Source of the DNA: Escherichia phage FV3
DNA length: 64,000 nt
Sequence record: NC_019517.1
Reading direction: 5' to 3' (one strand)
A model generated the notes under the pieces. That model saw only the letters and a list, made by a program, of their open reading frames with translations, was not told the DNA's origin and searched no databases. Shown piece after piece: positions 12,414 to 46,585 of the stretch. Position numbers and translations under genes: made by a program. Each line of letters opens with the position of its first letter. Within the stretch, counting starts at the first letter, position 1.

Positions 12414-12692
12414 ATGAGCTGCGAAAAATCTTTTTTCATCATCATTTACGGTAAGGATAACTGCCCACATTGTGTAAGAGCAAAAGAATTTGCAGTCAGT
12501 AAAGGCATACCTTTCGTATACAAGACGCTAGGTGAAGGATACACAAAAGAAGAGCTTATCGAGAAGTGTAGCCCATTTGTTCCCAGAACGTTGCCTCAGA
12601 TCTTCTTGGAAAGCAACCTTGACAGTATCCACATAGGTGGTGCTGACGATTTCATCTCTTTTGTTAAGAATGGTTTTGGAGAGAAAAAGTGA
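12414..12692 (+). CDS. glutaredoxin-like protein (phage NrdC-type)
   Basis: 92-aa ORF with CPHC active site and C-terminal PQIF...IGGADDF typical of glutaredoxins. Confidence 0.7.
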   Translation: MSCEKSFFIIIYGKDNCPHCVRAKEFAVSKGIPFVYKTLGEGYTKEELIEKCSPFVPRTLPQIFLESNLDSIHIGGADDFISFVKNGFGEKK

Positions 12693-13549
12693 AAGTTGTA
12701 AAACGGGACGGTAGAGAAGAGTTTTATAACGGAATTAAGGTGATCAAGGCGGCAGAGTCCGCCTTACTTGAGTCTGGACATACTGAAGAAGAAGCTTACC
12801 GGATTGCCTGTGCGGTTAATGAAGTTGTTGCCAACAATCTGCCAACTGACCAGTGCACGATCTCTGTAAAAAATATCCATATCCTTGTTGAAGATGCTCT
12901 TATGGATATGGGTTTAAAATGTGCAGCCAGAGAATACATCCAGTATAGACAGACAAGAGATAATAACAGAGAGGCAGGTGGAAAACTGCTTGCCGATATT
13001 AGTGGCTTCTTGGATCGTACTTGTGATGAATTTACAAAAGAAAACGCAAATAAGCCTACTAATCATGTACACACTCATCGTGACCTGCTTGCAGGAATCC
13101 TTAGCAAACATCTTGCATCAACACAGATCCTGCCAGACCGTGTCTCAGAAGAGCACAACAAAGGCTTCATCCATGTGCATGATCTTGACTACCTGATCAG
13201 TCCGTTAACAAACTGTTGTTTGGTGAATTATCCGGATATGCTGGAAAACGGATTCAACATTGGCAACGCCCATGTCAGTAAGCCGAAGTCAATAGGGGTT
13301 GCAACAACAATCCTTAGCCAAATCTCTAGTGCAGTAGCTAGTGCTCAATATGGCGGTCAGACCATGAGTCATATTGATCATTATTTGGCACAGTATGCTG
13401 AAGCAACTTATGAGAAGAACCTTAAATTTTGTCAGGAACATTGGTTGCCAGATGCTGAGACTGTTGCAATGCAAATGACAGATAAAGACGTGTTTGATAG
13501 TATGCAAACTTTGCTCTACCAAATCAATACGTTAACTTCTGTCAACGGT
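12689..13549 (+). CDS. nrdD: anaerobic ribonucleoside-triphosphate reductase, exon 1
   Basis: N-terminal ATP-cone (VVKRDGREEFY); reading frame stops 1 codon past proposed 5' splice site; exon ends in T. Confidence 0.75.
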
Positions 13550-14347
13550 TAACAAACTGGCCGTTGTAAAACTCTCCTAACCTCATAAGAGGGGTCGGTA
13601 AATCCGGCTAACGGGGAACGCTAAGGCGAAAGCTATGCCAATCCCGTGACTAGTTCTTACAGGAGTTGGAACGGTTGTAACGACTAACGAAAGGCAGAGA
13701 TGCTTGACAAACATTTCTGAACCGAGTAGTGTAGGGGTTAGTTGAAATACTAACTTCGAAAGGGAGAGACTCTATGAAAAAGATCATTCTTAATGGTGAA
13801 GAATCGAACTACGTGATTGATGAGGTGGGAAACGTATACGGAAAACGTGGAATGCTGCACCCCATATTGTGGGGAGGTTATGGAAAAGGTAACAAGCATG
13901 TTAAACGCCGCTATATGTATTCTTTCAACCACAAAGGTAAGAAGATTCGAATCCAAACTTCAAGGGTTGTTGCCTTGTATTGTTTGCCAGATGTCCCAGA
14001 AGACCCTGAAAACTGGGAAGTGAATCATAAAGATGGCAATACATTGAATGATCATCCGTCTAACCTAGAGTGGGTTTTGCCGGAAGATAATAAGAGACAT
14101 GCTTTCCGAACAGGGCTTTGTCCAGGCAAGTGCTACAGGAAAGTGCAGGCATACCAAGGGAAAACCTTGGTGGGTGAATATCCTTCACTCTATGCCTGTG
14201 CAAAAGCCTTAAATTTGAACGTAGGGAACGTCCATAGGGCTATCGAAGGAAATGCCGAAGGTAAGCATCTCACAATAAAGGGTTATTATCTTATTGAAGT
14301 AGAGTAAGAGATAGTCTGGCCCTGTGGAAACACAGGGGTGGAGACAG
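13550..14347 (+). mobile_element. group I intron in nrdD with 5' catalytic core and 3' HNH homing-endonuclease ORF
   Basis: Intervening ~0.8 kb between two NrdD halves; 13550-13773 is non-coding with group I-like elements (AATCCGGCTAACGGGGAACG, TAACGACTAACG R-like); 3' boundary uncertain by ~10 nt. Confidence 0.6.
13774..14307 (+). CDS. HNH homing endonuclease (intron-encoded)
   Basis: 177-aa ORF with VNHKDGNTLNDHPSNLEW HNH motif; RBS AGGGAGAG. Confidence 0.8.
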   Translation: MKKIILNGEESNYVIDEVGNVYGKRGMLHPILWGGYGKGNKHVKRRYMYSFNHKGKKIRIQTSRVVALYCLPDVPEDPENWEVNHKDGNTLNDHPSNLEWVLPEDNKRHAFRTGLCPGKCYRKVQAYQGKTLVGEYPSLYACAKALNLNVGNVHRAIEGNAEGKHLTIKGYYLIEVE

Positions 14348-15607
14348 CAGACTCCATTCATCACATTAAGTTTAGGGCTGGATACTTCGGTCTTTGGTAG
14401 AATGATTACCAAAAACTACTTGAAAGTTCACAAAATGGGTCTTGGTGAAGAACGGATCACACCTGTGTTCCCTAAAGTGCTGTTCTTCTTAGAGGAGGGT
14501 GTCAACATGAACCCTGGGGATCCTAACTACAATTTGAAACGATTGGCCCTAGAATGCTCTGCAGAGCGGATTTATCCTGACTTTGTTTCTGTTCCGCTAA
14601 ATCGTAAAGTGACAGGTTCAACAGACGGCAAAGTAACAAGCATGGGATGTAGGTCGTTCCTTGGCAAATACGTTACCCCGGAGGGTGATGAAAAATACCT
14701 TGGCAGATTCAACTTGGGTGTTGTTAGCCTTAACCTACCAATGATTGCGGCAAAAGCTAAGACGGAAGGTATTGATTTCTTTGCAGTTCTTGACGAATAC
14801 TTGGATCTTGCATACGAGGCTCACCTTGTAAGGGTTAACCGTCTAAAAGGAACAAAGGCAGGGCAGAACCCTATCATGTGGTGTGAAGGAGCTCTTGCTC
14901 GCCTGGATCCTGAAGAGAGTATCGATAAACTCTTCTATGACGGGTACGCTTCCATCAGTATTGGGTATATTGGTGTGTATGAAACCTGTCAGATTTTGGG
15001 CAGAGAGGGTGACAAGGCTTTAGCTCTTGGAATCCTTCAGCACATGAAAGATGCTTGTGATCGATATAAGAAGGAAAGTGGACTAGCATTTAGCTTGTAC
15101 GGCACACCTTCTGAGAGTTTATGCTATAAAGCTGCAACCTGTCTGGATCGTGAATACCCAGAAGTGTTGAAGCACGAGCATGAATACCTCACCAACAGTT
15201 TCCATCAGCCGGTATGGATCAATAGCTCGCCTTTTGATAAGTGGAAGTATGAGGAAGGTTTTGCTATGATCTCCTCTGGTGGCAACATTGGGGACATAGA
15301 GACACCGAATCTGAAAAACAACTTAGATGCTTTAGAAGCTCTTGTTGATTTCGGATATAAACATATTATGTATTTTGGTATTAACCAGCCTGTGGATAAA
15401 TGTCTTAAGTGTGGATTCTCTGGCGAGTTCAGTGCAACAGCTAAAGGCTTTGTATGCCCAGAGTGTGGAAACCATGAAGAAGGAACGATCAGTGTGATCA
15501 GACGCGTATCCGGGTATCTGTCCAGTCCAAACTCCCGCCCTTACAATAAGGGTAAGCAAGCTGAGGTTATAGAACGGGTTAAGCACTACGGAAGTTGTGG
15601 TTGCTGA
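14348..15607 (+). CDS. nrdD: anaerobic ribonucleoside-triphosphate reductase, exon 2
   Basis: Frame open from 14315; C-terminal zinc ribbon CLKCG...CPECG and glycyl-radical motif RVSGYL. Confidence 0.8.
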   Translation, partial: QTPFITLSLGLDTSVFGRMITKNYLKVHKMGLGEERITPVFPKVLFFLEEGVNMNPGDPNYNLKRLALECSAERIYPDFVSVPLNRKVTGSTDGKVTSMGCRSFLGKYVTPEGDEKYLGRFNLGVVSLNLPMIAAKAKTEGIDFFAVLDEYLDLAYEAHLVRVNRLKGTKAGQNPIMWCEGALARLDPEESIDKLFYDGYASISIGYIGVYETCQILGREGDKALALGILQHMKDACDRYKKESGLAFSLYGTPSESLCYKAATCLDREYPEVLKHEHEYLTNSFHQPVWINSSPFDKWKYEEGFAMISSGGNIGDIETPNLKNNLDALEALVDFGYKHIMYFGINQPVDKCLKCGFSGEFSATAKGFVCPECGNHEEGTISVIRRVSGYLSSPNSRPYNKGKQAEVIERVKHYGSCGC

Positions 15608-20709: not shown

Positions 20710-20943
20710 ATGAAAGTTAAATTTCTTACAGATTTAGGGTACCCTTCCTTGGTTGACTGCGTTGGTAAAATTGTGGAAGCAAAACGACTATCTGCAAACG
20801 ATAATGTTGTCATGGTTAAGGGAAAAGATTTACTATCTGCAGGTGCAGAGTCTGGCAGGATCTCTCCTGACTATACGTATTACCTGTCTTTAAGTAATCT
20901 ACCAGAACGAGGCGGCAAAGGCCTTGAAGTTGTGGAGGAGTGA
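20710..20943 (+). CDS. small acidic protein, MKVK family
   Basis: 77 aa; MKVKFL... ending LEVVEE; RBS GGAGG. Confidence 0.5.
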   Translation: MKVKFLTDLGYPSLVDCVGKIVEAKRLSANDNVVMVKGKDLLSAGAESGRISPDYTYYLSLSNLPERGGKGLEVVEE

Positions 20944-21467
20944 CAGGTATGCTGCTAGTTGATTGGAAAGATTTTTATGGCGATAAAGACCCGAAAGCCT
21001 TTATATATAAACCTTGGAGATACTCAGAGAGTCAAATTGCTGCAATAAACCTTACAGCAAAGCGCCGAAAAATTATCGAAAGTAAATACAGGTACGCTCA
21101 GCTAGTGGCTGGTGTTTCTCCACAGGTAGAGAGTTTTGTGCTTAAACTGTACGAAAAGTTTATGAGTTACGATCTGTCATTCGTGAAGGTGGGTGAGGAT
21201 TTATCCCCTGGTAACAACGTAACACGTTGGAAAGTTTCATGCGACAAAAAACTTCCGGTAAGTATTGAGGTGTGTCGATACTGGGGGTATCATGAGTGTG
21301 GCTTTTATGACTACCATGATGTAGAAATAAAGCCACGCAATCATCTAAGCGACCCAGAAAAAGATTACTTGAAGCATGTGATTCTTTCCATGTTTGGAGG
21401 GTATATCACAGAGAAAAATAGCGAAGACAGAATATCCTTTCTTAACAGTTTGAACCGGGAGATGTAG
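20940..21467 (+). CDS. hypothetical protein
   Basis: 175-aa ORF. Confidence 0.5.
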   Translation: MTGMLLVDWKDFYGDKDPKAFIYKPWRYSESQIAAINLTAKRRKIIESKYRYAQLVAGVSPQVESFVLKLYEKFMSYDLSFVKVGEDLSPGNNVTRWKVSCDKKLPVSIEVCRYWGYHECGFYDYHDVEIKPRNHLSDPEKDYLKHVILSMFGGYITEKNSEDRISFLNSLNREM

Positions 21468-32589: not shown

Positions 32590-33230
32590 GTTACTGTTTA
32601 CGCATATAACAATTGTATTTCTTATTATTTGTGGGGGATATAGTTAGCAACCAATAGATTAGTTATTAACCTGCGGACTTCTGACCGTCTAGACGTCCAA
32701 ACGCCCACACCACAAGGATTATACATACACTCCTGCATGTAAACAGGGCCGCAAAAATGCTACCATACCAGTTTGTAAATTTTCCATGCAGCACTTGACA
32801 AAGAGGAGAAAAACTTGTCTGACACACTGGACACCTTATACACCTTATACACTTTCGATACAATAACGATTGTTATTATTTCATGTTTCACTGTTCACGT
32901 ATAGATTGTTCCTGCATAGACTGTTTACGCCTGGATAGTTTACACCTTGACAGTTTACGCAGATATGATAAGCCATGACATTCGTTTGCATAGTTGCCTT
33001 ATTGTTACAGGTAAAACAATTACATTGTTAACTATTTCTTATCTTTCTCTTAGTCATCTAATGATTCCAGTCAGTATAGTTATGTACAGTAAACATTAGA
33101 CGACTAAATATTTCTCTGATTATAGTAACCTATCGTGACAATTTCTAACTGTTTACGAAAAATGTTGACACCTGGGCAGGTTTATGTTATGCAGTTTGTA
33201 CGAATAATTATTTTGTACAGGTATTGACTA
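32590..33230. repeat. iteron-like degenerate direct repeats (TGTTTACGC family) in non-coding strand-switch region
   Basis: CTGTTTACGC / TGTTCACG / GTTTACAC / AGTTTACGC / TGTTTACG / GTTTGTACG copies, densest 32889-32960; AT-rich; no convincing ORFs. Confidence 0.4.
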
Positions 33231-45265: not shown

Positions 45266-45517
45266 TTACAGATTGCTCCAGTACAATCGGCATTTACATT
45301 TTGGGCAATGAGGTTCTTTTATGTAATAACCGTCAGTCTTTGGAACACTTTTTGGTGCAGTTTTAATATTGTACCTGGTAAAACATCGGAAGCAGGTTAC
45401 CTCTCCGATCTGCTGATCGTTGATCCACTCGCCAGAGTAAAGCTCTTTCTTGTTTCTCATAATTCTCTCCCAAATCCTCTGCAATCTTATACCAAAATCT
45501 CCAGCCAGAAAGCACAC
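45266..45517 (-). CDS. small zinc-ribbon protein
   Basis: 83 aa; CFRC...CPKCKC. Confidence 0.45.
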   Translation of the reverse strand: MCFLAGDFGIRLQRIWERIMRNKKELYSGEWINDQQIGEVTCFRCFTRYNIKTAPKSVPKTDGYYIKEPHCPKCKCRLYWSNL

Positions 45518-45711: not shown

Positions 45712-46269
45712 TCAACACTTTTTGTACTCCACCACAATCACATCAATGTCTGTGGTGGCAAGATTAATGACGTCTTCCACGTGTTCCCACTTTAGACCAC
45801 CAATACCGCATCCGATTTTAGGAATGTAGAACGGTAATGACATACCTTTGAATACCTCGTTGACTCGCTCAAAGCCTTTCATGATTGAGAAGTATTCAGC
45901 ATTGGGCCCTGGGTAGAACTGGGTATACAGGTTGATTCCATATACGACCCTGTTCTTGGCAAAATGCTCCCAACAAGAAAACATGCCCAGCTTGTCTAGA
46001 TTACCATAAGCAGTCTCTTTGTCGGCTGCCAGTGCTTGAGGGAACTCACGGGCAATATCTTTCGCTATACCTGCACCCATTGTGTGAAAGCAGTTACAAC
46101 CGTGGATCATGTGGCCTGACCCTTTCTTGAAAATGGAGATTAGATCTCCACCTATAGTATCAATAATCACGGTATGCCAGCTCCTCTTCCGCAATTTCAA
46201 AAAACTCAGTCCAGCACTGTGGCATATTGGAGTTACCGAAGTGGCTTTCATAGTAAAGGTTCTCACCAC
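45712..46269 (-). CDS. macro-domain protein (ADP-ribose binding/processing)
   Basis: IIDTIGGDL...MIHGCNCFHTMGAGIAKDI and IPKIGCGIGGL match macro-domain Gly-rich motifs; N-terminus overlaps upstream ORF, start uncertain. Confidence 0.6.
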   Translation of the reverse strand: MVRTFTMKATSVTPICHSAGLSFLKLRKRSWHTVIIDTIGGDLISIFKKGSGHMIHGCNCFHTMGAGIAKDIAREFPQALAADKETAYGNLDKLGMFSCWEHFAKNRVVYGINLYTQFYPGPNAEYFSIMKGFERVNEVFKGMSLPFYIPKIGCGIGGLKWEHVEDVINLATTDIDVIVVEYKKC

Positions 46270-46585
46270 TCGGAAGATAGAAATCTGTTACCTCGTAGAA
46301 TCCACAATCGTCGCACTCACCTTCTTCAAACTTGGCCTCAACCTTGATACCGAGGAAGGTGAAAAGTTTATGGATATCTTCAGTTTCGAACTCCCAGTGA
46401 ATGTTGTTTTCCGCATCGGTGTAGAACTGGATCAGCAGACCATTGTCCAGTTTACCAAAATACTCTGTGAAGTAACTTCCTTCCCAGAAATCTTTATGAC
46501 AAATAATATCCATGCGTTTGCCCATAATAATGGTGTGAGCGTTTTGGGCATCGTCACGAATCAGTTTTGGCATTTCATAGGTCAT
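46160..46585 (-). CDS. hypothetical acidic protein
   Basis: 141-aa ORF. Confidence 0.45.
   Translation of the reverse strand: MTYEMPKLIRDDAQNAHTIIMGKRMDIICHKDFWEGSYFTEYFGKLDNGLLIQFYTDAENNIHWEFETEDIHKLFTFLGIKVEAKFEEGECDDCGFYEVTDFYLPSGENLYYESHFGNSNMPQCWTEFFEIAEEELAYRDY

Follow-up and report, generated by a model that had tools for sequence, protein, structure and literature searches.

A Vequintavirus member of the phage T4 Tk.4/AdfM macrodomain family with a probable role against DarTG2

Background

The ADP-ribosyltransferase DarT2 modifies thymidines in single-stranded DNA, and the macrodomain of DarG2 reverses this modification (PMC13309987). Here we analyse a macrodomain gene on a 64,000-nucleotide stretch of DNA from Escherichia phage FV3 (NC_019517.1; hereinafter the window) and compare it with the phage and bacterial macrodomains that are described as acting on such DNA. 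The closest of these with a phenotype comes from phage T4. The HIDEN-SEQ preprint of November 2025 (10.1101/2025.11.20.689424) describes a T4 transposon library challenged on DarTG2-expressing E. coli, in which tk.4 was the single significant match; a clean deletion of tk.4 sensitised T4 to DarTG2, and the gene was accordingly renamed adfM, for anti-DarT factor Macrodomain. Its authors propose, without biochemistry, that T4 AdfM strips ADP-ribose (ADPr) from DNA. Transposon disruptions are recorded for T4 at 45 of the 46 TA sites of tk.4, while the supplement of the same preprint lists all 31 TA sites of bas54_0092, from the Vequintavirus Bas54, as disrupted and classes this gene as 'Non-essential' on E. 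coli K-12. The window protein and the product of bas54_0092 share 97% identity; in the supplement's conditional comparison this gene shows no significant change, the Bas54 library having been reported without a DarTG2 challenge.

Two further macrodomains provide biochemical precedents. PhiKZ gp104, a DarG2-like macrodomain of chimalliviruses that has also been named AdfM, removes DarT2 modifications from DNA and protects against DarTG2 (PMC13309987). SCO6735, an orphan macrodomain from Streptomyces, hydrolyses thymidine-linked ADPr on DNA and rescues cells from DarT; its Q85A mutation abolishes activity and N27S nearly does so, in keeping with a proposed water-mediated, glutamine-positioned mechanism, and its substrates comprise both thymidine-ADPr DNA and Glu/Asp-ADPr protein (PMC9411070).

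A macrodomain of the Tk.4/AdfM family

The gene that corresponds to these systems in the window is:

45712..46170, minus strand: macro gene encoding 152 amino acids (aa), the Vequintavirus representative of the T4 Tk.4/AdfM family; begins with GTG at 46170-46168 and ends with TGA at 45714-45712

Its product matches the Pfam Macro profile (PF01661) at 26.0 bits against a gathering cut-off of 22, with profile positions 1-117 of 118 covered, and the three-layer α/β/α macro fold is present in its predicted structure. The original prediction, made from the letters of the DNA, had called a macro domain and offered a Macro profile match as its own test; that match and the predicted fold both bear the call out. 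Within the superfamily, the protein aligns with T4 Tk.4 over residues 1-150 at 39% identity (E 7e-43) and with the Tk.4 family profile PHROG_335 at E 4.3e-59, the two proteins having in common the blocks HGCNCFHTMG[AS]G, NLYTQFxPGPNxEY and P[KR]IGxGIG. We therefore place the gene in the T4 Tk.4/AdfM family, as its counterpart in Vequintavirus. The macrodomain annotation as such is already present in several GenBank records and the function of the family was reported in 2025-2026, while a common older annotation of the gene is 'phosphatase', derived from the A1pp motif.

The family is widespread in phages. Relatives were detected by tblastn in 2,810 of 50,697 phage records, including T4-like phages, where the gene sits at the tk.4 locus flanked by tk and vs, and Felix-O1-like, PaP1-like and Vi01-like phages. 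Searching 1.84 billion cluster representatives (clusters at 50% identity) with a profile yielded 1,270 clusters at E <= 1e-30. Standalone proteins make up most of the family, with 212 of the 258 retrieved representatives being 140-180 aa long and 13 reaching at least 250 aa. A domain scan of ten of the longer representatives found a NADAR domain fused to the macrodomain in three, one of which also carries DUF4326, and DUF4326 alone in a fourth; the fused macrodomains keep the H-N-D-N-Y-T-Q signature described below. The layouts observed are Macro-NADAR-DUF4326, X-Macro-NADAR and DUF4326-Macro (proteins P0144, P0204, P0206 and P0142), and a Macro-NADAR fusion lies on virus-like metagenomic contigs (L017:6268-7686). 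In DarG1 and in phage AdfN, NADAR acts as the glycohydrolase for guanine-ADPr DNA. A Macro-NADAR fusion makes sense as a joint answer to both DarT types, and these proteins may be single-polypeptide erasers of thymidine- and guanine-linked DNA ADP-ribosylation. The genomic context of one bacterial homologue, from Pelagimonas (P0057), was checked and shows no DarT neighbour.

Start codon and upstream overlap

The longest open reading frame (ORF) at this place (45712..46269, minus strand, 185 aa) holds both glycine-rich motifs quoted in the original prediction, but it is not the gene, which starts at GTG 46170. The features that define this start are:

46181..46186, minus strand: Shine-Dalgarno sequence GAGGAG, 10 nucleotides (nt) upstream of the GTG and inside the 3′-terminal part of the preceding gene
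46160..46170, minus strand: 11 nt (GTGATTATTGA) common to both genes, from the macro start codon to the stop codon of the upstream gene
46160..46585, minus strand: upstream gene, 141 aa, PHROG_8157 (unknown function), given for context; its stop (TGA 46162-46160) overlaps the macro start

A ribosome-binding site is annotated in phage Murica at the place equivalent to GAGGAG, and annotators chose the coding sequence with the equivalent GTG start in A51.2, Murica, JLBYU08, magaca and Bas54. All the Vequintavirus orthologues that we extracted start with GTG and read 'VIIDT', while the homologue from the Krischvirus RB49 starts with ATG and reads 'MIIDT'; the alignment to T4 Tk.4 likewise runs from Tk.4 residue 1, and the predicted structure of the 152-aa protein places a confident β-strand at its very beginning, residues 2-8. 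The start had earlier been called ambiguous, with an overlap of ~90-110 nt with the upstream frame: the start resolves to GTG 46170, and the overlap shrinks to 11 nt, an arrangement typical of translational coupling. Among six Vequintavirus orthologues the ratio of nonsynonymous to synonymous substitution rates (dN/dS) is 0.05-0.15, and hence the protein is under purifying selection even though it is dispensable on K-12. The gene is real, as originally observed.

Active site

To describe the active site we use an alignment of 259 sequences, namely the 258 cluster representatives and the window protein. Nine positions are nearly fixed in it: H23 (251 of 259), N26 (257), D50 (257), N80 (257), Y82 (256), T83 (249), Q84 (256), G120 (256) and G122 (257). 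This family signature is complete in the window protein, and the elements G32-A-G34, G120-x-G122-x-G-G125 and N26 vary little or not at all. They map to the DNA as follows:

46093..46104, minus strand: codons H23-G24-C25-N26, with N26 the conserved macrodomain asparagine (DarG N22, SCO6735 N27)
46069..46077, minus strand: codons G32-A33-G34, the first glycine-rich ADPr/phosphate-binding loop, placed by the alignments
45919..45933, minus strand: codons N80-L81-Y82-T83-Q84, with Q84 at the column of the catalytic lysine
45796..45813, minus strand: codons G120-C-G-I-G-G125, the second glycine-rich, diphosphate-binding loop, placed by the alignments

In the column of Q84, profile and multiple alignments place a lysine in DarG (K80), TARG1 (K84) and PhiKZ AdfM (K78), a glutamine in SCO6735 (Gln85) and BT1257, and a serine in yeast Poa1p, for which the aligned sequence was checked against PDB 6LFQ. 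Given this glutamine at the catalytic position, the window protein and T4 Tk.4 look like SCO6735 there and not like DarG; judged from these alignments, catalysis probably follows SCO6735 rather than the lysine mechanism of DarG and TARG1. The position of TARG1 Asp125 is occupied by Gly124. H23 aligns with H24 of SCO6735 and H23 of Poa1p, so that of the Poa1p mutant sites H23 is kept while S30 is T30 in the window protein, a position that varies in the Tk.4 family (T in 180 of 259). D50, conversely, sets the family apart: the column has a tyrosine in SCO6735, BT1257, DarG, PhiKZ AdfM and Poa1p and a near-invariant aspartate in the Tk.4 family.

Proposed function and alternative explanations

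We consider it likely that the window protein is a standalone macrodomain of the ALC1-like class that serves as an orphan, 'antitoxin-like' anti-DarTG2 eraser of thymidine-linked ADPr, probably with SCO6735-type catalysis. The suggestion of the original prediction that the gene counters ADP-ribosylating host defences now has genetic backing from a relative in the family: T4 tk.4 (39% identical) is the single T4 gene required for growth on DarTG2. We infer the substrate, mechanism and anti-DarTG2 role of the window protein, and picture its action as follows. The protein would be expressed from the early/middle transcription block of replication genes. Where host DarTG2 becomes active, DarT2 would ADP-ribosylate thymidines of single-stranded phage DNA and thereby block replication. 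The macrodomain would bind the ADPr via its two glycine-rich loops; Gln84, held by Asn26, would position the distal ribose for attack by water, and hydrolysis of the thymidine-ribose bond would yield free ADPr and replicable DNA.

A bolder version, to which we assign a rather low probability, is that the Tk.4-type AdfM is a mechanistically distinct, glutamine-based and Asp50-marked eraser, possibly with wider substrates, that disarms several ADP-ribosylating defences. If this were true, the wider substrates could include protein or RNA ADP-ribosylation or the ADPr by-products of the phage sirtuin and RNA-ligase module.

A related explanation, which seems to us unlikely, is that the enzyme is a broad or different eraser that takes ADPr off proteins (TARG1/SCO6735-like Glu/Asp-ADPr) or RNA (mRNA of the CmdT type), together with or instead of DNA. 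It is conceivable because SCO6735, which has the same glutamine, is bifunctional on thymidine-ADPr DNA and Glu/Asp-ADPr protein (PMC9411070), and it draws some further support from the presence of TARG1 among the top structural matches and from the existence of RNA-ADP-ribosylating defences, such as CmdTAC, aimed at T-even phages. Against these points, the Lys84/Asp125 dyad of TARG1 is replaced by Q84/G124, the macrodomain-type hydrolases tested in a study of RNA-ADPr reversal were inactive on guanosine-ADPr RNA, and the literature that we found reports no genetic link of the Tk.4 family to a protein- or RNA-ADPr defence.

We likewise give little credence to a Poa1p-like ADP-ribose-1″-phosphate phosphatase, an enzyme that would remove the soluble by-product left by NAD-dependent RNA repair or tRNA ligation, or some other small derivative of ADPr. 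Poa1p matches the predicted structure equally well and also has His23, and Vequintaviruses have a module of RNA ligase, sirtuin, kinase and phosphoesterase elsewhere in their genomes. However, that module lies tens of kb from the macro gene, the Vequintavirus genomes inspected carry no KptA/Tpt1 annotation, and tk.4 is kept in T4-like phages that lack a sirtuin. In addition, the near-invariant Gln84 stands where Poa1p has its serine, a Poa1p insertion of ~20 residues is missing from the window protein, and T30 is variable. Moreover, the 'phosphatase' label is an old motif-based transfer with no assay behind it, and the T4 tk.4 phenotype, as described in the HIDEN-SEQ preprint, is specific to DarTG2.

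Finally, we regard it as highly improbable that the protein regulates the phage's own ADP-ribosyltransferases or sirtuin or erases their marks, or that it degrades or soaks up ADPr-derived immune signals such as the Thoeris gcADPR; regulation of phage ADP-ribosyltransferases had been offered as an option in the original prediction and finds no support, as no ADP-ribosyltransferase is annotated in the related Vequintavirus genomes that were read across their length.

Genomic setting and neighboring loci

Over the 2.5 kb around the macro gene, nucleotide identity to more than 100 rV5-like E. coli phages (genus Vequintavirus) is 95-97%, and the initial 25 kb of the window match the same group. 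A plus-strand block from 1 to ~30.5 kb holds nucleotide-metabolism genes (ribonucleotide reductases, thymidylate synthase and exonucleases), and a minus-strand block runs from rIIA/rIIB, helicase, primase and DNA polymerase to a putative single-stranded DNA-binding protein (SSB) and numerous small genes. The macro gene is part of the minus-strand block, in which it comes downstream of both the polymerase and the SSB-like gene, and its earlier description as standing "among early/replication genes" is for this reason a fair one.

A promoter and terminator scan around the macro gene gave no excess of sites over shuffled sequence, with the sole terminator-like site near the gene lying upstream, past the SSB-like gene; Rfam and tRNA scans of the window returned no matches. 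Within macro codons 8-12 there is a perfect 6-bp hairpin (46135-46149, minus strand; GGAGAT-CTA-ATCTCC, followed by ATTTTC). The equivalent site carries a 'terminator' annotation in Murica, and the hairpin falls below the pass mark in the terminator scan of the window; it may be a mere by-product of the conserved GDLIS coding sequence.

None of the neighbouring ORFs has a Pfam, NCBIfam or PADLOC match, and neither the upstream 141-aa gene nor the other neighbours show any resemblance to the DarT-binding half of DarG or to defence or anti-defence families. One neighbour nevertheless recurs with the macro gene in other phages:

45266..45460, minus strand: CxxC...CxxC zinc-ribbon gene, 64 aa, PHROG_4864, two genes downstream of the macro gene

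In the Krischvirus RB49 (L011:3446-3640) and in Phi1 the zinc-ribbon gene, with 77-78% identity, directly abuts and overlaps the macro/tk.4 gene, and it lies within ~1 kb of the macro gene in KPKp, the single Klebsiella phage record comparable at both positions. It is no obligate partner of the macro gene, being found in 294 phage records as against 2,810, but is a possible partner of it. The nearest relative of the window protein outside Vequintavirus is also from RB49 (L011:3001-3456; 66% aa identity), with T4 at only 39%, and this difference together with the common adjacent zinc-ribbon gene suggests lateral exchange of a small macro and zinc-ribbon cassette between rV5-like and RB49-like phages.

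The Vequintavirinae Bas60-62 are reported to have a NADAR gene of the AdfN type. A NADAR/AdfN-type gene was sought in the window and none was found, though not every ORF was scanned. One ORF was considered as a candidate on account of its label in a related phage:

20940-21467, plus strand: ORF of 175 aa, 'putative glycosidase' by the label from the BASEL phage EmilHeitz

It was rejected as NADAR/AdfN, having no Pfam, NCBIfam or PDB match and belonging only to PHROG 13467, of unknown function. EmilHeitz also shows, in regions outside the window (L007:1-1859 and L015:1689-4814), a cluster of genes for an RNA ligase, a sirtuin-domain protein, a polynucleotide kinase and a phosphoesterase, followed by six tRNA genes. 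This Vequintavirus cluster is likely an NAD-linked RNA-repair module and may be a second place in these phages where ADPr chemistry matters.

Two further loci of the window merit description. The plus- and minus-strand blocks meet at about 30.6-33.7 kb, where 32593-32965 has no ORF of at least 100 aa and no tRNA or Rfam match. It contains four copies of the 16-nt motif ACTGTTTACGCATATA, three of them at an exact 30-nt spacing, adjoining an AT-rich patch and a change of sign in GC skew. This iteron-like region may be a candidate origin or regulatory region, and it may be the counterpart of a ~2-kb intergenic region of Bas54 that tolerates no transposon insertions, according to the HIDEN-SEQ preprint (10.1101/2025.11.20.689424). 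The anaerobic ribonucleotide reductase gene (12689-15607, plus strand) is apparently split into ORFs 12689-13552 and 14324-15607 by a 177-aa ORF at 13774-14307, whose match in EmilHeitz is annotated as a homing endonuclease within a two-piece 'join' coding sequence. This layout resembles an intron that houses a homing endonuclease gene, yet no Rfam intron family matches.

Implications

For the window itself, the analysis mainly confirms a gene that was already annotated. Its wider interest lies in the T4-type AdfM as a very large phage family, sometimes fused to NADAR, with an SCO6735-like glutamine active site rather than the lysine of DarG; the glutamine and the NADAR fusions are both testable points on how phages reverse DNA ADP-ribosylation. 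The rV5-like phages are broad-host-range coliphages found in therapy and biocontrol collections. Carriage of an AdfM-type gene predicts that DarTG2-bearing strains would not restrict them, and its deletion should expose their dependence on it.

Comparison with known systems

Several described macrodomain classes were set aside. A true DarG is rejected, as NCBIfam NF048014 gives 44.2 bits against a cut-off of 250 over model positions 9-143 of 338 and the catalytic lysine is absent. Human TARG1/OARD1 (4J5S) is rejected because its catalytic dyad is lacking in the window protein, and the MacroD/YmdB-like O-acetyl-ADP-ribose (OAADPr) deacetylases, which are not the closest class by structure or sequence, are rejected on their defining features. 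Poa1p (6LFQ) differs in the serine at position 84 and in its additional insertion.

The DarG proteins of known structure (PDB 5M3I, 5M31/5M3E and 7OMU) differ in architecture as well as in chemistry. The window protein consists of the macro domain only; it lacks the C-terminal domain that binds DarT, no darT gene lies beside it, and in alignment with M. tuberculosis DarG, PhiKZ AdfM and TARG1 the catalytic Lys80 becomes Gln84. The PADLOC DarG model (PDLC02990) matches PhiKZ AdfM at 4e-39, the window protein at 2e-12 and T4 Tk.4 at 1e-9. PhiKZ AdfM (gp104) resembles the window protein as a phage-encoded standalone macrodomain of the same name, with DarT2-modified DNA as its demonstrated target; it nonetheless belongs to a different lineage, at 22% identity, still has the lysine of DarG (K78) and is imported into the phage nucleus.

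SCO6735 (PDB 5E3B) and Bacteroides BT1257 (2AFC/2FG1) are only 21-26% identical to the window protein, and their conserved tyrosine is D50 in the Tk.4 family. In SCO6735, Lys34 and Val25 stand where the window protein has Ala33 and Gly24, and the mobile loop that carries Lys89 and Lys94 is 5-6 residues longer, this extended loop being absent from the window protein; Lys34 and the loop serve DNA binding in SCO6735. The catalytic pair itself, on the other hand, is in common, with Q84 and N26 aligning with Q85 and N27 of SCO6735.

The closest system is T4 Tk.4/AdfM. It comes from a Tequatrovirus rather than a Vequintavirus and its neighbours differ, the window having no tk/vs locus; but both are standalone proteins of ~150 aa with a glutamine at the position of the DarG lysine, both are non-essential on K-12, and both come from large virulent myoviruses, in which their genes sit within an early/middle block.
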